Source: Candidatus Iainarchaeum sp. | Lineage (GTDB): Archaea; Iainarchaeota; Iainarchaeia; Iainarchaeales; Iainarchaeaceae | Reading direction: 5' to 3' | Assembly (NCBI GenBank): GCA_038895675.1 | Contig: JAWANB010000001.1 | Coordinates: 31,443 to 95,442 of the forward strand | Length of the DNA: 64,000 bases | In this document: positions 3,889 to 40,136 of the stretch, one piece after another | Numbering within the stretch: the first letter of the stretch is position 1 | Layout: each line of letters starts with the position of its first letter | The notes under the pieces: model-generated | What the model saw: the letters and a program-made list of their open reading frames with translations, nothing else | Told to the model about the DNA's origin: nothing | Databases searched by the model: none | Made by a program: the position numbers and the translations under genes

Positions 3889-4584
3889 TTAGCCGTATTT
3901 TTCAGTCTTTATCATTTCTTTAGGCACATTATTTTCAATTAATATTTTTTCAGTGTCTAAAACCATTGCTGGCGGGCCACATATAAAGTAATAACTTTCC
4001 TTGTTTTCTTCTACTATTTTTTTGATTAGTTTTGAATCTATTCTACCAAAGTAATACCCTTTCCTTTCTTCTCTACTCAGACAATACACTAATTTTATTC
4101 CTTTTATTTTTTTAGCAAATTCATCAAAATCATTTTTACAAATAATATCTTGCTCTGTTTTGTTCGAATAATACAAACTCACTTGAGTATCCAAGTTCTT
4201 GTCTAAAACGTATTGACAAAAACACCTAAAAGGTGCTATTCCAGAACCTGCAGCTAACAAAACTATTTTTTTCATTTTTTCAGGCTCAAACACAAAATGT
4301 CCCCAAGGACCATCCAACAAAAATTCTTCACCTAAAGGTGCAGTAGTCAATAGCTTTGACACATAACCTTCAGGCATTTGCTTTATCGTGAACTCTAAAA
4401 TACCTTTCCTTTCAGGAGAACTAGAACAAGAGTAAGACCTCTTTGGTATTTTTTCTTTTCTCAAGAATTCTATCATAAAAAATTGACCAGGCTTAAAATC
4501 AGGCCTTTCAGGACATTCAAAGGTTAAAGTGTAAGAGTCATGAGTCTCTTGTTTTACTTTCAAAAGCTTAGCCTTAAATTTCAT
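3889..4584 (-). CDS. FAD/NAD(P)-binding oxidoreductase, ferredoxin-NADP reductase-like (PyrK/HydG-like lacking a C-terminal Fe-S domain).
   Basis: FNR-like beta-barrel plus Rossmann fold. Motifs: RSYSCSS (the RxYS FAD motif), LLAAGSGIAPF (the GxGxxP NAD motif) and a C-terminal FICGPPAM. Confidence 0.65.
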   Translation of the reverse strand: MKFKAKLLKVKQETHDSYTLTFECPERPDFKPGQFFMIEFLRKEKIPKRSYSCSSSPERKGILEFTIKQMPEGYVSKLLTTAPLGEEFLLDGPWGHFVFEPEKMKKIVLLAAGSGIAPFRCFCQYVLDKNLDTQVSLYYSNKTEQDIICKNDFDEFAKKIKGIKLVYCLSREERKGYYFGRIDSKLIKKIVEENKESYYFICGPPAMVLDTEKILIENNVPKEMIKTEKYG

Positions 4585-4715: not shown

Positions 4716-5321
4716 ATGCCATTTGCTTTACCAAAACTAAACTATGATTTTAATGCACTTGAACCATACATAGACGAACAAACAATGAGAATTCATTATG
4801 GAAAACACCATCAAGCTTACATTGACAAATTAAATGCCGCAATACTAAACACCAAATTTGAAAAAATGCCAATAGAAGACATACTAAAAGACTTAGAAAA
4901 AGTTCCTGCTGAAATAAGACAAACAATAAGAAACAATGGAGGAGGACACTACAACCATTCTCTCTTTTGGGAACTAATGAGTCCAAAAGGAGGAAAACTA
5001 ACTTCAACAATACAAAAAGCATTAGAGAACACTTTTGGCTCTTTCGAGTCCTTCAAAGAAAAATTCAAAAACGCAGGCCTAAATCAATTTGGATCAGGTT
5101 GGGCTTGGTTAGTAGTTTCAGACAAAAAACTTGAAATAATATCAACTCCAAATCAAGATAATCCTATTTCACAAAACAAAACACCAATATTAGGCGTTGA
5201 CGTTTGGGAACACGCATACTACCTAAAGTACCAAAACAGAAGAGCAGATTACTTAGAACAATTTTTCAACGTCATTAACTGGGAAAAAGTTGAAGAACTT
5301 TATAAAAAAGCACTCAAATAG
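4716..5321 (+). CDS. sodA: Fe/Mn superoxide dismutase.
   Basis: LPKLNYDFNALEPYIDEQTMRIHYGKHHQAYIDKLN...DVWEHAYYLKYQNRRADYL are classic Fe/Mn-SOD signatures. A strong RBS, AAGGAGGG, lies 8 nt upstream of the ATG. Confidence 0.95.
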   Translation: MPFALPKLNYDFNALEPYIDEQTMRIHYGKHHQAYIDKLNAAILNTKFEKMPIEDILKDLEKVPAEIRQTIRNNGGGHYNHSLFWELMSPKGGKLTSTIQKALENTFGSFESFKEKFKNAGLNQFGSGWAWLVVSDKKLEIISTPNQDNPISQNKTPILGVDVWEHAYYLKYQNRRADYLEQFFNVINWEKVEELYKKALK

Positions 5322-22391: not shown

Positions 22392-23573
22392 TTACAAAAA
22401 TTCATATATTCCGACACTAGGCTTACTTGTCTTTGAAAGTCTTTTAACATACCTTGTTTCTTGTTTTTCTTTTTCAAACCTTACTTTTTTTCCAACCAAA
22501 ATTTTTTTACCACAAACATACAACGCGTTATTTTTTCCTAAAGCACAATAAAACTTGCCAATTTTAGGCTTGTATTTTACCATTTTTGAATTTTTTAAAA
22601 GCGCAATAACATTTTTTGCTACTACCTTTGATTGGTCAACAGCATTTTGAGCAGTTTTCTGAATGCTTTCATTTTCCACTATACAAGCACAATCACCTAA
22701 ACCAAAAATAAAAGGATAAGTAGTACATTGCATAAAACTATTTACTAATAAGCCACCTCCAGGAGCGCCTCTTTCACCAAGCATTCCAGAGTAAGGAAGC
22801 GAGCTCTCTATTATTAGATCGTGAGTCCTTATGCCTCCAGCCCAAATTAGCGTATCACAACTAAACTCACTTCCGTCTCTACTAATAACTTTCTTATTAA
22901 AAATTTTCTTTGTATAAAAATTGCATACTACATCAATACTTGCTTTACTTAAATAATCAAGGACTAAAGAAGAAGCCTTGTCTGGCAGATTTGGCAAAAT
23001 TCTATTTGGACCATGCAAAATAGTTACTCTAAAGTTTTTTCTATTAAATCCGTTTTTTGCACATACAATATCAAGATGATCTTTCAAAGTAGTTGCTAAT
23101 TCTATTCCAGTTAGACCTGCACCACAAACAACAAAGTCATGTGGCTCATTTTTTTCAACACAATTTGAAATTCTCTCAAAAAGCTTTTCAGCGTCTTCTT
23201 TACTTTTCAACGCAAAAGCCTTTTCTTTTCCTTCTATGCCTGAATAATTGGTCAAAGCTCCAATTGCTAAAATAAGTACATCAAAACTAATTTTTTCAGA
23301 ATTTTTGGTTATAACAAACTTTTCTTTTGGCAAAATTTTTTTTACGGAATCATGGTAATAAACTATCTTGTACTTTTTTAATAAAGAAGGAATTAATAGA
23401 CAAGTGTCAGCCTCTGAAAGTTCTCCTGCCGCAACTTCATAAAGCAAAGGCGAAAAAGTAAAGCAGTCATCATCACTAACTAAAATTATTTCATTTTTTG
23501 ACAAATATTGCCTAAGTCTTAGAGCTGTTTCTATACCAGCAAAGCCTCCTCCTAAAATCAATATTTTTTGCAT
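22392..23573 (-). CDS. FAD-dependent pyridine-nucleotide oxidoreductase, type-II NADH dehydrogenase (NDH-2)-like.
   Basis: Two dinucleotide-binding motifs (ILILGGGFAGIE and VVCGAGLTGIELA) and a C-terminal GLGDCA. About 393 aa. Confidence 0.65.
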   Translation of the reverse strand: MQKILILGGGFAGIETALRLRQYLSKNEIILVSDDDCFTFSPLLYEVAAGELSEADTCLLIPSLLKKYKIVYYHDSVKKILPKEKFVITKNSEKISFDVLILAIGALTNYSGIEGKEKAFALKSKEDAEKLFERISNCVEKNEPHDFVVCGAGLTGIELATTLKDHLDIVCAKNGFNRKNFRVTILHGPNRILPNLPDKASSLVLDYLSKASIDVVCNFYTKKIFNKKVISRDGSEFSCDTLIWAGGIRTHDLIIESSLPYSGMLGERGAPGGGLLVNSFMQCTTYPFIFGLGDCACIVENESIQKTAQNAVDQSKVVAKNVIALLKNSKMVKYKPKIGKFYCALGKNNALYVCGKKILVGKKVRFEKEKQETRYVKRLSKTSKPSVGIYEFL

Positions 23574-28120: not shown

Positions 28121-29416
28121 CTATCTCCAATTTATTTTCAAAAAATGTGAAGCACAACTAAAACAAGGGTCATAAGCTCTAATCAATCTCTCTAATTCCA
28201 ACCTAACTTTTTCCTTGCCTTGGTCAAGATAAAGCGGTATTAGTTCTTTCAAATCATGCTCCATGTTTATTTGGTTTTGTTGACTTGGCGTACATATTTC
28301 AGCGTGTTTAATTATTCCTTTCTCGTCAATTTCAACCATGTAATAAAGCAATCCTCTCGGAGCTTCTATTGCTCCAATTCCTTTTCCACCAATCTTTTTT
28401 GGCAAAGGCTTTTCTTCTTGCTTGAACTCTAACGATTCCAGTAAATCTATTGAACTATCAATGCAATGAACTATTTCAATCGCTTGAGCCAAATTATTGT
28501 GAAAGACATCGTGAGAAGGAAAACAAGACAAAAATTTTGAACAATCTTTTTTAGTCTTCTTATTCAAAGAACCTCTATTCAAATTAAGCCTACTCAACGC
28601 ACCAACCCTATACCTTTGTCCTTCAAACTTAAAACCAGTGCTTTGAGAATAAGGAAGTATTACCCTTTCAACGTGGTTCCAATAATGTTTTTCAGGAATA
28701 CAATAACCTTCACTACTAATTATTTCACCACTCAAAAAATCAAAGTCTTCAGAACCAAGACAAACATAGTTTGAAGGACTCTCAAAATTTAATTCTTTTT
28801 CATAAAAAAGCTCTACTAAGTCTATTACTTTATCTCTTACTTCCAACAATTTTTTAGAAACTTCTTTCATAGATGACTTTTCAGGTAATTTTGCATAACT
28901 GCCAATCATAGCAAACATTCCATGAACAGCCCTTCCTAAGACAAGAGTTGACAAAGAATTGCCACTTGCTTTAACATCAAAACAATCTTTAATCCATTTC
29001 TCATCTTTGCCTTCAAGCTCTAATATAGAGTCTTTACCAAAAAGGTCAGGCAAAGAAAAAAGGTACAAGTGCATTGCATGATCCCTAATATTTAAACCAT
29101 ACATGGTTAATTTTCGCAAAAGTATTGTTTGCTCACTAGGTTCAATGGCTAACGCATTTTCGAAAGCTTCAATCGAACAATTAAGATGCGCAATACTACA
29201 AGTACCACAAATTCTTGAAACTAATTGTGGGACAGAATTGTAATGCTTACCTCTTATTGCTTGAGTATAAAACCTCTTATTTTCGTTGACTTTAAGCTTT
29301 AAATCTTCTACCTTGCTATTTCTTACTTTTATGTCCAGTTCTGCATGGCCTTCTATCTTAGAAATAGGGTCTATTACTAAGTCAAAGTCATGGTCATGTT
29401 CAAGCGAGCCGTGCAT
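28121..29416 (-). CDS. [NiFe]-hydrogenase large subunit (group 3-like).
   Basis: N-terminal L1 motif RICGTCSIAH and C-terminal L2 motif DPCFSCASH, followed by a short extension (FLKINWR) for proteolytic maturation. The track ORF starts 20 codons upstream. A Met at 29414-29416 abuts the small-subunit stop. Confidence 0.85.
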   Translation of the reverse strand: MHGSLEHDHDFDLVIDPISKIEGHAELDIKVRNSKVEDLKLKVNENKRFYTQAIRGKHYNSVPQLVSRICGTCSIAHLNCSIEAFENALAIEPSEQTILLRKLTMYGLNIRDHAMHLYLFSLPDLFGKDSILELEGKDEKWIKDCFDVKASGNSLSTLVLGRAVHGMFAMIGSYAKLPEKSSMKEVSKKLLEVRDKVIDLVELFYEKELNFESPSNYVCLGSEDFDFLSGEIISSEGYCIPEKHYWNHVERVILPYSQSTGFKFEGQRYRVGALSRLNLNRGSLNKKTKKDCSKFLSCFPSHDVFHNNLAQAIEIVHCIDSSIDLLESLEFKQEEKPLPKKIGGKGIGAIEAPRGLLYYMVEIDEKGIIKHAEICTPSQQNQINMEHDLKELIPLYLDQGKEKVRLELERLIRAYDPCFSCASHFLKINWR

Positions 29417-29417
29417 T

Positions 29418-29897
29418 TTATTCCACTCCAAATTCTTTAAAATAATTTTCCATAATTTGAATAAACTTTTCCTCAATTATAGGACAACCTGGCACTTCAG
29501 CATCAACTTTAATGTACTTTCCAATAGGCTCTACAGAAGGCAAATGACTAAATCTTTCTAAAATAGGCTTTATTTCTTCTAACCTTTCCTTGTCAAAAAA
29601 GTTTCTATTATTGCTTGGGCTTCCGTTTATTGCACAACTTCCAATAGCAACAACTTTTTTTGCCTTATCCCTTATTTCTTGCAAAAGCTTCAATTCTTTG
29701 CTATTAGAAATAGCTCCTTCTACAAAAGCAACGTCAAGGTCATTCATAGTGTTGTTGGCTTTTAAAATTCTTGCATAAACAAAATCAACCTTGTCTTTCC
29801 AATCCTTTAGCTTGTAATTCAATATTTCAACAAAAGTAATTACACAACCTTCATCACCAGTAAAAGAAAAAATTCCAACACGCAATTTCTTGCCCAT
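29418..29897 (-). CDS. [NiFe]-hydrogenase small subunit, truncated group-3 delta-like, with the proximal-cluster domain only.
   Basis: 159 aa. KLRVGIFSFTGDEGCVI, DVAFVEGAISNS...KKVVAIGSCAINGS and KYIKVDAEVPGCPI align to the N-terminal flavodoxin-like half of group-3 small subunits. The C-terminal medial/distal cluster domain is absent. The first Cys of the CxGC motif is Asp. Confidence 0.7.
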   Translation of the reverse strand: MGKKLRVGIFSFTGDEGCVITFVEILNYKLKDWKDKVDFVYARILKANNTMNDLDVAFVEGAISNSKELKLLQEIRDKAKKVVAIGSCAINGSPSNNRNFFDKERLEEIKPILERFSHLPSVEPIGKYIKVDAEVPGCPIIEEKFIQIMENYFKEFGVE

Positions 29898-30352: not shown

Positions 30353-31273
30353 ATGAAAACCAATACAGGTATAATATTAGTTTTATGCACTGCTCTTGTA
30401 AGTGGCGTGTCTGTTTTTTTGAATTCTTTTGCTGTCCAACAAATAGACCCGTTTAATTTGACTTTTATAAGAAATTCTTTAGTCGCAATAATGCTTTTTT
30501 CAATAATAATACTTATTAAAGAATACAAGCATTTAGAAAAACTTAATTTTGACCAATGGAAAATTCTGTTTGCCATAGGCTTAATAGGTGGGAGCATACC
30601 ATTTTTACTTTTCTTTTATGCATTAAAATCAATTAGCTCCACTTCGGCTGGTTTTATTCACAAAACTTTATTCATTTATGTTGCCATTTTAGCAATGGTA
30701 TTTCTCAAAGAAAAACTTTCATTAAAATTTTGGTTTGGCGCATTACTAATTTTCTTAGGAAACCTCTTGCTTTTTTCAGGAGACCTGAAAGCAGATTTTC
30801 CATTTTTGTTAGTTTTTGTAGCCACGATACTTTGGGCAATTGAAAATGTCATTTCGAAATATGCAATAAAAGAAAAAGAAATTAGTCCTAATATAGTCGC
30901 TTTTGGCAGAATGTTTTTCGGTAGCATTTTCATGCTAATAATTTTATCTTCAATTGGAGCTATAAAAACACCAACTTTTGAAATAACTCAATGGCTATGG
31001 TTATTAGCAACAACAGCATTGTTGTTCTTGTATGTATTAACATATTACAATAGCCTAAAATACATAGAAGTGTCAAAAGCTTCTGCGATAATAATGTTAG
31101 CACAACCAATAACAGCTTTACTTTCTCTTTTATTTTTAGGAAAAAATCTGACTTTGCAACAAGGAATAGGTCTTACACTAATGGTAATAGGAGTTATACT
31201 AATAATAGGATTTCAATTTATATTTCAAAACTTTTCTTATAGGGGATCAATAGTTGCACAAAAAAGAAATTGA
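30353..31273 (+). CDS. EamA/DMT-family transporter.
   Basis: 306 aa with 10 hydrophobic helices forming two EamA repeats. Confidence 0.6.
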   Translation: MKTNTGIILVLCTALVSGVSVFLNSFAVQQIDPFNLTFIRNSLVAIMLFSIIILIKEYKHLEKLNFDQWKILFAIGLIGGSIPFLLFFYALKSISSTSAGFIHKTLFIYVAILAMVFLKEKLSLKFWFGALLIFLGNLLLFSGDLKADFPFLLVFVATILWAIENVISKYAIKEKEISPNIVAFGRMFFGSIFMLIILSSIGAIKTPTFEITQWLWLLATTALLFLYVLTYYNSLKYIEVSKASAIIMLAQPITALLSLLFLGKNLTLQQGIGLTLMVIGVILIIGFQFIFQNFSYRGSIVAQKRN

Positions 31274-31979
31274 AGGATTAAAAATTTTGTGCAAGTATTC
31301 AAGCATACCAAACAGCTTAGGGTATTGTGGAAAAGAAAATAGTTATGTTCTTTTCAACTCATTTCTAAAGAAACCAACAAAAGAAAAAGGCAAAAAAATA
31401 AAAAAAATAATCAAAACTTTTGTAGGTTTATCACCTTATTTACGAATTATATCAGACTCAAATGGCTTAACAGAATTTGATGAAGAAGTTGCACAAGCTT
31501 ATTGGTTAGGTAATAAGTTGCTTGACAACATTGACAAAGAAGAACTCAAAAAAATGATATTAGAAGATTTTACAAAACCTGGCATGTTGCCTTATTATAT
31601 TGCAGAACAAAAAGCCAATAATTTGAAATCAAAAGTTTTTCCAAACCACTCATTTCACGTTCTTTATATAAACTTTGTAACAAAAAAAGTAAAGCCAATT
31701 TTAAGCAATTTAAATAATTGTTTAATAAAACCAGCGATCTATAAAGACAAAAATTTTTTTATAACAACAAAATTATCCTTAGTCAAAGACAAGCTTGACC
31801 TAAAAAAGACTATTAAAAAATTTGAAACACAAAAAAAATGTTTTTCTGAAAAAATTTTTTCAACACATTGGAATACTCTAGTTGATGAAATAACTAAAGA
31901 AGAGCAAAAAAATTTGGAAAAATACACTAACAAAAATTTGAATTTAGCTAATTCTTGCTTGCAATCTTCCAAGAGTTAA
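31254..31979 (+). CDS. Hypothetical Lys-rich protein.
   Basis: 241-aa ORF with no recognisable domain. Its 3' end overlaps hypC convergently by 32 nt. Confidence 0.35.
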   Translation: MHKKEIEGLKILCKYSSIPNSLGYCGKENSYVLFNSFLKKPTKEKGKKIKKIIKTFVGLSPYLRIISDSNGLTEFDEEVAQAYWLGNKLLDNIDKEELKKMILEDFTKPGMLPYYIAEQKANNLKSKVFPNHSFHVLYINFVTKKVKPILSNLNNCLIKPAIYKDKNFFITTKLSLVKDKLDLKKTIKKFETQKKCFSEKIFSTHWNTLVDEITKEEQKNLEKYTNKNLNLANSCLQSSKS

Positions 31980-37277: not shown

Positions 37278-38165
37278 TTAATTTTTCAAACCGCATTTTT
37301 CAAGCAGGTTTTCATAATTAAGATTAGCTTGTCTTTGTATATGTTCTACTTGCTCTTCGCTTAAATGCTTAAACCTTTTTTGTAGTTCGAGATATTCCTT
37401 TACAGGCCTTGGATTTGAAGGATTAAAGTTTAGTTTGTACTTTCCATTTTCAACCTCGTATAAAAACCATAGCCTAGATTGAACCGCAAGTTTTGCAACT
37501 TTCATTGTTATTCCCCCATCAAAACCAGCGCCAAGACAACAAGGAGCATCAACAACAACAAACGATGGCCCTTTTACTTCTTTTGCTTTTCTTAATTTCA
37601 TTTGAAAGTCTGCATAATAAGCTATTGAAGCAGAAGCTGCATAACTTATACCATGAGCAGCAACTATTTCAACTATTGGCTTTCTCTCGGTCTCTTTTCC
37701 TTTATGCACTGCACCAACATTAGTAGTTGTTGTTGCCGCACCATAGGGAGTTGCACCAGATTTTTGAACACCAGTATTAGCATACAATTGATTGTCATAG
37801 CAAACATAAAGAACATTATCTCCTCTTTCAAGCATTCCGCTCAAAGCACCAAAGCCAATGTCATATGTTGCACCATCACCGGCTATAACAACTACTTTCG
37901 TATGATTATTTCCTTTTGCTTTCAAAGCTGCTGCTACTCCAGAAGCTACGGCTGGAGCGTTTTGGAAAAGAGAATGAATGTAAGGTACACGCCATGCACT
38001 CTCAGGATATTGTGAAGAAGTTATTTCCATGCACCCTGTTGCCTGAACAATTATAATATCTTTCCCTAAAGTATCACAAACTTGTATTAACGCATTGCTT
38101 GGACCACAGCCAGGACAACCACTATGGCCAGGAGAATAAAGGTGCATTTCAGATTGCATACTCAT
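37278..38165 (-). CDS. porB: Pyruvate/2-oxoacid:ferredoxin oxidoreductase beta subunit (TPP-binding).
   Basis: CPGCGP and GDGATYDIGFGALSG (TPP motif). Operon order is G-D-A-B. Confidence 0.9.
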   Translation of the reverse strand: MSMQSEMHLYSPGHSGCPGCGPSNALIQVCDTLGKDIIIVQATGCMEITSSQYPESAWRVPYIHSLFQNAPAVASGVAAALKAKGNNHTKVVVIAGDGATYDIGFGALSGMLERGDNVLYVCYDNQLYANTGVQKSGATPYGAATTTTNVGAVHKGKETERKPIVEIVAAHGISYAASASIAYYADFQMKLRKAKEVKGPSFVVVDAPCCLGAGFDGGITMKVAKLAVQSRLWFLYEVENGKYKLNFNPSNPRPVKEYLELQKRFKHLSEEQVEHIQRQANLNYENLLEKCGLKN

Positions 38166-38167
38166 AA

Positions 38168-39316
38168 TTATCCCTTCATAGTAGCCTTAGGAGGCTCTGT
38201 CGCGATCCACTTTCTAACAGGCTTGCCTTTTAATTGTTCAAACATATCTCTTATATGTTGCCTTTTTATTCCTCGTCCGCCCAAGCCGCCAAAAAAGCTT
38301 GAAACCTCTGAATTTCTACCAACAGCCTCAAAAACTTCAGAGTAAAGTGGAGCACAAGAACCTATGCTTAAACACCTGTCTATTACCCCGACTTTTTTTC
38401 CACTCAAAAACCTTACTAATTCCTCTCTTGGAAAAGGCCTCAAAACTCGCACATGCAAAGCACCTACTTTTTCTCCTTTTTCTCTTAGCTCATCAACAAC
38501 AATCATAACATTATCCATTACTGAACCCAAACCAACTATTACTCTTTCAGCGTCTTCTACTTTATAGGCATTCACAAGTCCATAAGTTCTGCCTGTTAAA
38601 GCACCCCACTTTTTTCCAGCTTCAACAATTAGTTCTTTTGCAATTTCCATGTCTTTAACAAGATCTTCTCTAAACATTTGATAATGAGTTGGGTTAGCAT
38701 AAACTCCCAAACTAACAGGGTTCTCTGGATCAAGTTCCAAAGGATACTTGTAAGGAGCCAAAAATTCTTGCACCTTATTTTCATCAGCAACGTCAACTTG
38801 TTCAACAGCATGTGTCAAGTAGTGACCATCAACACAAACCATAACTGGCAAAAGTATTTTTTCTGCAACATAAAAGGCTTGAGGAATAGCATCAACAGCC
38901 TCTTGATTATTTTTACAATAAATTTGAATCCAACCAGTATCCCTTTGACTTACAGAATCTTGTTCATCATTCCAAATGTTCAAAGGAGAACTAACAGCCC
39001 TATTACCAACAAGCATCACTATTGGCAACCTCATACCAGCTGCACTAAAAAGTGGTTCGTGCATGTAAAGCAAACCTTGGCCACCTGTAGTAGTAAAGGT
39101 TCTTGCACCAGCAGCGCTTGCGCCTATTAGTGCAGAAATAGCAGAAAATTCAGCCTCTACAGTAATGTATTCAGGAATCTTGCCATCAGCATAATACTTG
39201 TTTAGCTCTTCAGTTAAATGAGTAGTAGGGGTAATAGGGTAACAAGCAACCACTTGGGGTTTACAATTAACTACCATTTCGCCAATAACCCTAGCGCCTT
39301 CCTTAGTCTTAATCAT
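38168..39316 (-). CDS. porA: Pyruvate/2-oxoacid:ferredoxin oxidoreductase alpha subunit.
   Basis: VVACYPITPTTHLTEEL, GGQGLLYMHEP and the 382-aa length are typical of POR/VOR alpha. Confidence 0.9.
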   Translation of the reverse strand: MIKTKEGARVIGEMVVNCKPQVVACYPITPTTHLTEELNKYYADGKIPEYITVEAEFSAISALIGASAAGARTFTTTGGQGLLYMHEPLFSAAGMRLPIVMLVGNRAVSSPLNIWNDEQDSVSQRDTGWIQIYCKNNQEAVDAIPQAFYVAEKILLPVMVCVDGHYLTHAVEQVDVADENKVQEFLAPYKYPLELDPENPVSLGVYANPTHYQMFREDLVKDMEIAKELIVEAGKKWGALTGRTYGLVNAYKVEDAERVIVGLGSVMDNVMIVVDELREKGEKVGALHVRVLRPFPREELVRFLSGKKVGVIDRCLSIGSCAPLYSEVFEAVGRNSEVSSFFGGLGGRGIKRQHIRDMFEQLKGKPVRKWIATEPPKATMKG

Positions 39317-39570
39317 TGTTGATCATCCTCTACTCTAACCATTTCAATGCATTTTACAGGGCACTCATTAGCACAAATACTACAACCTTTGCAATACTCA
39401 TAATCTATTTCAGGTATTTTTTTTACAACACCCATTATTCCTTCAGGACAAAAATTTTGACAAATTCCACATTTAATACACTTATCGCCATTTACTAATG
39501 GCATGTAAGCTTTCCATTCTCCAGTTTTGTTTGAAGTACTAGAACCAGGTTTTGCATAAGGAATAATCAA
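39313..39570 (-). CDS. porD: Pyruvate:ferredoxin oxidoreductase delta subunit (2x[4Fe-4S] ferredoxin).
   Basis: CIKCGICQNFCP and CKGCSICANECP. Confidence 0.9.
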   Translation of the reverse strand: MIIPYAKPGSSTSNKTGEWKAYMPLVNGDKCIKCGICQNFCPEGIMGVVKKIPEIDYEYCKGCSICANECPVKCIEMVRVEDDQQ

Positions 39571-40136
39571 GCTTTCACCCCAACATTAACAACCTGCATC
39601 GTATCATAAACCTCTTGAATAGCATTAATGTTCGCTTCAACAACTTGTTGAGGAAACTTGTTTCCTAAAACTTCACGAATAGCCCTCTTTACAGATTCTA
39701 TTTTTACTATGCCTGTGACTTTACACAAAGCCCCTAACATAACCGTGTTCAAAATAAGTTTCTTAAAATGCTTTAACGCAACACTACTTGCGTCAACAGT
39801 AAAAACATTTTTAGCTTTTATATCCAATTCACTTGGTTTTTTATTAGTGTTCACAATAACAACTCCATTTTCTTTTAAACCAGCACAAACATCAACTTCA
39901 GACATGATGGAAGGATCAGCAACAACTACAATGTCTGGCTCTGCTATTTCTTCATGAATCTGAATAGGCTTATCATCTATTCTTACATAAGCTTCTACAG
40001 GAGGTCCTCGTTTTTCAGAACCAAAAAAAGGAAAAGCTTGACTAAATTTTCCCTCATAGTTAGCAGCTTGAGCAATTATGTCAGCACCAGTAACCATGCC
40101 ATGGCCTGCCCTTGCATGAAGCCTTATTTCTTTCAT
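39567..40136 (-). CDS. porG: Pyruvate:ferredoxin oxidoreductase gamma subunit.
   Basis: IRLHARAGHGMVTGADIIAQAA...FGSEKRGPPVEAYVRI is a POR gamma signature. Confidence 0.9.
   Translation of the reverse strand: MKEIRLHARAGHGMVTGADIIAQAANYEGKFSQAFPFFGSEKRGPPVEAYVRIDDKPIQIHEEIAEPDIVVVADPSIMSEVDVCAGLKENGVVIVNTNKKPSELDIKAKNVFTVDASSVALKHFKKLILNTVMLGALCKVTGIVKIESVKRAIREVLGNKFPQQVVEANINAIQEVYDTMQVVNVGVKA

Follow-up and report, generated by a model that had tools for sequence, protein, structure and literature searches.

A probable minimal [NiFe]-hydrogenase from a DPANN archaeon with a putative aspartate ligand at the first cysteine position of its lone iron-sulfur cluster

What is to be made of a [NiFe]-hydrogenase small subunit that ends just after its proximal-cluster domain and carries an aspartate where the first cysteine ligand of that cluster is expected? 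The question is raised by a gene pair in a 64-kb stretch of DNA (hereafter the window, meaning the whole of the stretch that was analysed) from a DPANN archaeon of the Diapherotrites/Iainarchaeum-like type, the relevant features of which are collected in Table 1. We consider it probable that the pair encodes a minimal, cytoplasmic, two-subunit [NiFe]-hydrogenase that has its affinities with group 3b and shares a family with the 'hyd2' enzymes of CPR bacteria, with a putative [4Fe-4S] cluster held by Asp15, Cys18, Cys88 and Cys138. In such an enzyme the carboxylate of Asp15 would replace the first thiolate of the CxxC motif. Furthermore, because a medial/distal ferredoxin-like domain is absent, the lone proximal cluster would serve as both entry and exit for electrons, in direct exchange with a separately encoded flavoprotein or with a POR/ferredoxin system.

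Table 1. Hydrogenase genes, predicted ligand codons, conserved neighbours and candidate electron partners in the window
Feature	Coordinates	Strand	Basis or remark
[NiFe]-hydrogenase small subunit, 159 aa, proximal-cluster domain only	29418..29897	-	ATG start, TAA stop
Asp15 codon (GAT), first-Cys ligand position	29853..29855	-	Alignments and codon check
Cys18, second ligand position of D-x-x-C	29844..29846	-	Cys in 113/117 homologs
Cys88, G-S-C-A motif, third ligand position	29634..29636	-	Invariant, 120/120 homologs
Cys138, P-G-C-P motif, fourth ligand position	29484..29486	-	Invariant, 120/120 homologs
[NiFe]-hydrogenase large subunit, 431 aa	28121..29416	-	Pfam NiFeSe_Hases
Probable hydrogenase maturation endopeptidase, 127 aa	29929..30312	-	Weak Pfam HycI match, E 0.0027, below cutoff
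EamA/DMT-family membrane transporter	30353..31273	+	Pfam EamA, E 5.7e-46
DUF6390 protein, 241 aa, conserved neighbour	31254..31979	+	
HypC/HupF maturation chaperone, 71 aa	31948..32163	-	Pfam HupF_HypC, E 2.7e-12
FNR-like protein, partner candidate	3889..4584		25 kb off; sole FNR-like gene in the window, without Fe-S domain
Pyr_redox_2 protein, partner candidate	22392..23573		6 kb off
POR operon (POR/ferredoxin system), partner candidate	37278..40136		

The small-subunit ORF matches the Pfam profile Oxidored_q6 (PF01058) above its curated threshold (76.9 bits, the cutoff being 27; E 1.5e-21), and a PDB sequence search returned MvhG, P. furiosus SHI delta, HoxY, HydS and FrhG as its nearest solved relatives. 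An AF2 model of the protein adopts a flavodoxin-like fold with a pLDDT of 96.6, and the top 13 Foldseek matches of that model are without exception hydrogenase small subunits, with 7t2r_E, 9nez_A and 5xf9_C the best among them. The whole protein contains three Cys residues, at positions 18, 88 and 138, and a mere 21 residues follow the last of these before the stop codon, which is separated by 1 nt from the ATG of the large subunit at 29416. The small subunit thus consists of the flavodoxin-like proximal-cluster domain alone, and its translation is coupled to that of a large subunit with a complete Ni-Fe site. The absence of a medial or distal cluster domain, noticed in an earlier note made from the sequence, is therefore borne out by the residue count and by the start of the next gene.

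Ungapped HMMER alignments set the FTGDEGC of the window protein against LGGCSGC in MvhG, LTSCYGC in P. furiosus SHI delta and SGCTGC in M. barkeri FrhG, and therefore match Asp15 to the first of the ligand cysteines, as the same note had proposed. Its companion claim, that the remaining positions are all Cys, agrees with both the alignments and the codons, giving an occupancy of three Cys (18, 88 and 138) among the four canonical ligand positions. The conservation of these positions was followed in the 120 closest small-subunit homologs (50-74% identity), 117 of which align at position 15; of the latter, 98 have Asp, 18 have Cys, and one has Ser, the sole Ser15 homolog carrying a Cys at position 14.

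One mundane explanation would attribute either the Asp or the brevity of the protein to an artefact, be it an error in sequencing, a split gene or a frameshift. Three independent assemblies, among them one named Candidatus Diapherotrites archaeon, encode a protein of identical sequence, and two substitutions are needed to turn the Asp codon into a Cys codon (GAT to TGT), so Asp15 is not a sequencing error, and the prevalence of Asp among the homologs argues in the same direction. The earlier note had held that Cys at this position in the orthologues would point to such an error; what is found instead is a large majority with Asp. It had likewise named a frameshifted C-terminal domain continuing downstream as grounds for abandoning its reading, and this too was looked for and excluded, because the large-subunit ATG lies 1 nt past the stop. 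Furthermore, a scan of the 64-kb window for 2x[4Fe-4S] ferredoxin motif pairs located a single one, which belongs to POR delta and lies about 9.5 kb from the small subunit, and the relatives of the protein are equally short. An artefact thus found no support and can be taken as refuted.

The short length is a property of the family and not of the window protein in particular. Small subunits in the 120 close homologs range from about 141 to 239 aa, with a median of 161 aa. When the species genomes of GTDB were scanned, relatives turned up in at least 530 species, and in the best 80 loci, which were those examined, the large subunit is always adjacent (80/80), and no more than 47 residues follow the GCP motif in any of the 79 loci where this could be measured. 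The truncation is therefore common to the whole family, across at least 530 GTDB species.

An end directly after the proximal-cluster fold had been described in the earlier note as unusual for group 3, a description that has to be corrected, as HydS, HoxY and the CPR 'hyd2' proteins (PMC7304191) are likewise short. The AF2 model covers nearly all of HydS (7t2r_E, 179 aa) and of HoxY (5xf9_C), with target-normalised TM-scores of 0.72-0.73 (0.72 for 5xf9_C), and this superposition shows that small subunits ending past the proximal-cluster fold occur elsewhere in group 3. HoxY, of group 3d, and HydS, of the bifurcating HydABCSL enzyme, are both about 180 aa in length, HoxY-type small subunits as a group measuring about 180-210 aa; they possess the proximal cluster only, and pass electrons directly to a flavoprotein-containing module. 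The resemblance to the window protein has limits, however, because HoxY has the canonical motif C-W-G-C in place of D-E-G-C, and because HoxY and HydS are co-encoded with HoxFU or HydABC, genes that are absent here.

The closest described relatives are those of the 3b-related 'hyd2' clade of CPR bacteria, in which the small subunits are consistently truncated to a mean of 164 aa, no beta or gamma subunits are co-located, and the function is regarded as uncertain (Jaffe 2020, BMC Biol, PMC7304191). Truncation is therefore already known for the CPR relatives, and the window enzyme resembles them in the length of its small subunit, in the lack of beta and gamma genes nearby, and in the proximity of HypC. 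For instance, a Portnoybacteria member (P0115) is 53% identical in the small and 48% identical in the large subunit, and shares the EamA, DUF6390 and endopeptidase neighbours. There are nonetheless two differences, in that 'hyd2' was defined as CPR-specific whereas the window enzyme comes from a DPANN archaeon, and in that the CPR members compared here all carry a tandem C-C-E-D-S ligand motif whereas the window protein has D-E-G-C. The main text of Jaffe 2020 makes no mention of ligand residues, DUF6390 or EamA (PMC7304191).

The large subunit is that of a true [NiFe]-hydrogenase. Its Ni-Fe motifs are complete, comprising RICGTCSIAH (L1), PRG and DPCFSCASH (L2), and the last of these is followed by a short C-terminal tail of seven residues, FLKINWR, for processing by an endopeptidase. 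Large subunits from elsewhere in the family are 48-52% identical to it. Its best PDB matches are group 3b alpha subunits, namely those of the P. furiosus and T. kodakarensis sulfhydrogenases (E 1e-61 to 1e-59), and it scores 205-212 bits against group 3b chains as compared to 96-104 bits against HoxH-type chains. The best NCBIfam matches are also 3b alpha models, yet the scores lie far under the equivalog cutoffs (218 against 880 for HydA, and 243 against 700 for another), and the small subunit attains only 67 against a cutoff of 500 for the HydD equivalog.

Comparison with P. furiosus SHI shows where the likeness to group 3b stops. The N-terminal domain of SHI delta aligns with the window protein over residues 4-149, but SHI delta is a protein of 261 aa with a ferredoxin-like domain and a canonical C-Y-G-C motif, and 3b-type delta subunits in general are about 240-260 aa long with extra Fe-S clusters, which the window protein lacks. 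Moreover, SHI includes NADPH-linked beta and gamma subunits, and the window enzyme does not; no gene for a beta (Fe-S) or gamma (FAD/NAD(P)) subunit was found in the flanks of 10 kb on either side, here or in four relatives, and no HoxF/HoxU or other diaphorase gene was found in a scan of all but a few small ORFs of the window. Papers on DPANN and CPR genomes call such genes group 3b and assume NADPH coupling on the strength of the large subunit alone. With one cluster and neither beta nor gamma subunit, the label 'group 3b, NADPH-coupled' is therefore unsupported for this enzyme.

Two solved enzymes show that an aspartate can substitute for a cysteine in a proximal cluster. Asp60 of M. marburgensis FrhG ligates the proximal cluster (PMC3591093, PMC3930138), and the actinobacterial-type hydrogenase of C. 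necator (AH, group 1h) has a proximal [4Fe-4S] cluster with three Cys and one Asp, the latter tied to the insensitivity of the enzyme to O2 (PMC11023054). Like the window protein, both display three Cys and one Asp over the four canonical proximal-cluster positions, and both are functional. FrhG had been put forward in the earlier note as the precedent for Asp15, and this holds in so far as a functional cluster ligated by Asp60 is documented, but not with respect to position, because in the M. marburgensis motif, C57-T-G-D60, it is the second Cys that is replaced; FrhG of M. barkeri and of M. thermolithotrophicus has the canonical CTGC. The AH enzyme is no closer. When its small subunit HofK, taken from megaplasmid pHG1, is aligned, G-C-D-G-D-S falls opposite E-C-T-C-C-S of HoxK, C-W-G-C of HoxY and C-Y-G-C of SHI delta, which yields a C-x-x-D arrangement with Asp at the second position, and the second Asp of C-D-G-D would by this alignment be the ligand. 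Neither enzyme therefore qualifies as a same-position precedent, and because the Asp of each replaces the second Cys, whereas that of the window protein (D-E-G-C) stands at the first, D-x-x-C is a positional variant without a solved counterpart. A further difference is that the small subunits of FrhG and AH also bear medial and distal clusters, of which the window protein has none. By analogy with other Asp-ligated clusters, an oxygen ligand would be expected to shift the potential of the cluster, its pH dependence or its response to O2 without inactivating it, and it is plausible that the cluster is tuned rather than inactive.

Further evidence on the role of Asp15 comes from turnover of the ligand set within the family. 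The window protein belongs to the type [G/A/S]-D-E-G-C (xDEGC). Relatives have C-D-E-G-C, with a Cys at position 14 in addition to Asp15; the canonical G-C-E-G-C; C-C-E-G-C, with tandem Cys plus Cys18; or one of C-C-E-D-S, C-S-E-D-S and C-C-E-D-N, in which tandem Cys or a lone Cys14 is present and the second Cys of CxxC is gone. In the best 80 GTDB species loci, 53 are of the CC-type, 12 are xDEGC, 11 are CDEGC, three are GCEGC and one is CCEGC, and in this set all loci that bear Asp15 are archaeal and all CPR loci are of the CC-type. In a rough NJ tree the Asp15 and Cys15 states are interleaved across several clades. Alternation between Asp and Cys only, interleaved in this manner, is the pattern that a metal ligand would show, and it speaks for a ligand more than for a bystander; together with the position of Asp15 in the motif, it suggests that the carboxylate probably ligates the cluster.

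Among a set of 150 representatives at 50% identity, D-x-x-C is nearly restricted to the short family, with one long-subunit exception (P0221), and C-x-G-D occurs in several long small subunits. Positions 19 and 97 were also considered as covarying with the ligand type, but the signal proved to be mostly phylogenetic.

The tandem Cys of the CC-type relatives invites comparison with complex I, where a tandem-Cys arrangement ligates cluster N2 in NuoB. NuoB/Nqo6 and the group 4 small subunits share the Oxidored_q6 fold and hold a single cluster, and the C-C-E-D-S relatives are NuoB/Nqo6-like in having tandem Cys and in missing the second Cys of CxxC. The window protein itself is only marginally similar to NuoB in sequence (E 0.15 or weaker) and lacks the tandem Cys, and its partner is a true Ni-Fe large subunit, whereas that of NuoB is NuoD.

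One alternative to ligation by Asp15 is that Cys18, Cys88 and Cys138 hold a [3Fe-4S] cluster and that Asp15 acts in the second sphere, for example in charge or proton handling. The xDEGC subtype, with 87 sequences, shows no variation at Asp15 or Glu16 and has three conserved Cys columns, with no compensating Cys, and 57 of the 87 contain exactly three Cys, which is in keeping with a 3Fe cluster. The C-D-E-G-C proteins are also consistent with such a role, as they have four Cys on offer (C14, C18, C88 and C138) and nonetheless keep Asp15; the conservation of Asp15 is therefore not in itself proof of ligation. In the ferredoxin of P. furiosus, as in other Asp-ligated clusters, the 4Fe and 3Fe forms interconvert readily. 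The hydrogenase Huc has [3Fe-4S] clusters throughout (PMC11023054). Against this, position 15 swaps only with Cys, and does so over several clades. In natural 3Fe clusters the position of the lost Cys is usually taken by a non-ligating residue, for example Pro or Gly. Furthermore, both solved hydrogenases with Asp at a proximal-cluster Cys position bind a [4Fe-4S] cluster through that Asp. On balance a 3Fe cluster seems unlikely, although it merits more weight than the other alternatives to a [4Fe-4S] cluster with Asp15 as a ligand.

Another possibility is that the fourth ligand is a different residue, either the neighbouring Glu16 or a residue of the large subunit, and that Asp15 has some other role. 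Glu16 might appear an attractive candidate, as it is invariant both in the 117 aligned homologs, whatever their ligand type, and in the 87 xDEGC sequences. Its invariance extends, however, to the types that already possess four Cys (GCEGC, CCEGC and the CC-types), and its conservation therefore does not track the need for a ligand. The spacing of D-x-x-C is moreover that of the canonical C-x-x-C, and we regard a substitute ligand as distinctly improbable.

If Asp15 is a true ligand, the cluster would bring the oxygen-ligated proximal clusters known from nature to three, and would be the only one of them with its oxygen ligand at the other Cys position. The natural relatives with Cys15 or tandem Cys would then provide a ready comparison set for the effect of the first coordination sphere on potential, catalytic bias and response to O2.

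A hydrogenase small subunit with an altered ligand set in a reduced genome might also be a degenerate, non-catalytic relic, such as a sensor or a pseudo-enzyme, in which the Asp reflects relaxed constraint. In keeping with this, the scan of all but a few small ORFs of the 64-kb window yielded no gene for HypA, B, D, E or F and no dedicated redox partner, and the function of hyd2 was called uncertain by Jaffe et al. (PMC7304191). The conservation of the protein speaks otherwise, as the ligand positions are strictly conserved over more than 100 homologs at 50-74% identity and across at least 530 species, and the invariance of Asp15 within its subtype is the opposite of what relaxed constraint would produce. 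The active-site motifs of the large subunit are intact, and a dedicated endopeptidase and HypC have been retained. A relic is thus very unlikely, and a working hydrogenase is implied by the intact large-subunit motifs, the processing tail, and the adjacent endopeptidase and HypC genes.

These maturation genes are part of a module that surrounds the hydrogenase pair in DPANN and CPR genomes and that consists of the endopeptidase-like gene, EamA, DUF6390 and HypC. The endopeptidase-like gene lies 31 nt upstream of the small subunit on the same strand, 69 of the 80 related loci have an equivalent, and the homologs of its product also match HycI weakly. EamA is beside the hydrogenase in 46-55 of the 80 GTDB loci, and HypC is near the module in 28 of 80. 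A role for the EamA protein as a metal (Ni) permease was considered and is unsupported, six orthologues showing no conserved His, Cys or Asp motif. In the DUF6390 protein a helical domain precedes a beta-barrel domain that is HypC-like, and the protein may act in maturation or as an accessory factor; searches on DUF6390 returned no papers, no PDB sequence match and no NCBIfam model.

Candidate electron partners for the cluster are suggested by gene fusions and by gene neighbourhoods. One protein (P0122), whose gene lies with the same module on a contig of archaeal origin, joins the small subunit to a TrxR-like domain (TIGR01292, E 2e-64), and in another (P0138) the small subunit is fused to a NuoF-like domain. 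A third apparent fusion, of 375 aa in locus L059, was rejected as upstream read-through. A TrxR-like gene is also the commonest neighbour outside the core module, being present in 22 of 80 loci, a raw count of loci that share ancestry; none is located within the 64-kb window. An FNR-like gene, present in 8 of 80 loci, is 34% identical to the FNR-like gene of the window. Neither that gene nor the Pyr_redox_2 gene is conserved beside loci of the D-type, and orthology between the Pyr_redox_2 protein and the flavoprotein domain of the P0122 fusion was rejected, the two being 22% identical (E 0.008).

Taken together, these observations admit a broader reading in three parts, which as a whole we advance tentatively and think rather less likely to be right than wrong. 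According to this reading, the short-subunit enzymes of DPANN and CPR organisms would make up a natural class of their own, that of minimal [NiFe]-hydrogenase modules with one Fe-S cluster each. The ligands of this cluster would have been swapped repeatedly, between D-x-x-C, C-D-x-x-C, C-x-x-C and a complex-I-like C-C, with the D-x-x-C of the window protein representing a functional, previously uncharacterised Asp-first [4Fe-4S] coordination. Finally, the module would plug into interchangeable flavoproteins, mostly TrxR-like, and DUF6390 would represent a new accessory factor related to HypC. If this were true, organisms that lack respiratory chains would have H2 tied to their thiol/disulfide or NAD(P) redox balance, and the recurrence of TrxR-like partners does suggest that H2 plays a part in the physiology of organisms with very small genomes. 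Relative to the literature searched, the elements that appear to be new are the putative Asp-first coordination, the turnover of the ligand set within the family, the EamA/DUF6390 module and the association with TrxR.

The two-subunit architecture is also the type of minimal hydrogenase that engineers have attempted to derive from P. furiosus SHI (PMC3200332). The engineered alpha-delta dimer of SHI is active and, without using NADPH, takes electrons straight from POR (PMC3200332).

Across the best 80 GTDB species loci with relatives of the window's hydrogenase, the commonest non-core neighbour is a thioredoxin-reductase-like gene (TIGR01292, 318 bits). When loci are counted raw and kinship is ignored, 22 of the 80 have such a gene no more than 6 kb from the hydrogenase; FNR-like genes of 249 aa occur inside the same distance in 8 of the 80 on the same raw count. 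Two small-subunit homologues carry flavoprotein or related modules in the same polypeptide. P0122, from locus L009, joins a complete thioredoxin-reductase-like domain with a C-V-N-C-D-G motif to a short small subunit of the CC (tandem-Cys) type, and its gene is preceded by an EamA/DMT transporter gene and followed by genes for the large subunit and an endopeptidase. Together, this fusion and its gene context suggest an H2-linked disulfide reductase. In P0138 (702 aa), found in the representative search, a Pro/Thr-rich linker connects a NuoF/HoxF-like module (Complex1_51K and NADH_4Fe-4S) to a short C-S-E-D-S small subunit.

Features of the window and of locus L009
Feature	Location	Coordinates	Strand	Remarks
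FNR-like flavin reductase	window	3889..4584	-	FAD_binding_6 and NAD_binding_1, without Fe-S domain
Fe/Mn superoxide dismutase	window	4716..5321	+	adjoins FNR-like gene
Pyr_redox_2 flavoprotein	window	22392..23573	-	393 aa
EamA/DMT transporter	window	30353..31273	+
Pyruvate:ferredoxin oxidoreductase (POR) cluster	window	37278..40136	-	four genes: gamma, delta, alpha, beta
Folate and purine genes	window	40815..51741		FolD, SHMT, SAICAR synthetase, adenylosuccinate synthetase, AIR carboxylase, AICARFT/IMPCH, formyltransferase, AIR synthase, adenylosuccinate lyase
P0122, TrxR-like::small-subunit fusion	L009	6001..7503		99.8-kb archaeal contig

The window itself holds three candidate redox partners. 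Its FNR-like protein shares 34% identity with those encoded beside CC-type hydrogenases elsewhere, and the neighbouring superoxide dismutase gene hints at exposure to O2. The Pyr_redox_2 gene is positioned 4.5 kb past the large-subunit gene, with the small-subunit gene some 6 kb away, and PF07992 proteins have also been noted near hyd2, the CPR clade of 3b-related hydrogenases (Jaffe et al., PMC7304191). Its top NCBIfam matches, to models of SelD-associated and CoA-disulfide-reductase-like proteins, all fall well short of the cutoff; orthology with the flavoprotein domain fused in P0122 was ruled out (E 0.008). The hydrogenase and the POR cluster, whose delta subunit carries two Fer4 motifs, are some 7.4 kb apart. 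By analogy with the engineered, active alpha-delta SHI dimer of P. furiosus, which takes electrons straight from POR (PMC3200332), it is possible that this cluster would serve as direct electron donor.

The hydrogenase operon in relatives includes the EamA/DMT transporter gene, which was found in 46-55 of the best 80 GTDB loci. In L009 the transporter's stop codon and the beginning of the gene for the fused small subunit overlap, and in L008, another relative's locus, the transporter gene is closely spaced with the hydrogenase genes. A conserved metal-binding motif was sought in six EamA orthologues, and none was found.

The long small subunit P0221 (258 aa), which has a Cys-rich, ferredoxin-like C-terminal domain, also places Asp at the first ligand position (S-G-D-A-G-C), with G-C-P replaced by Q-C-P-P. 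The putative Asp-first coordination, as read from sequence, therefore arose outside the short family too.

DPANN genomes are usually described as biosynthetically poor, which makes the tight clustering of folate and purine-biosynthesis genes in the window notable.
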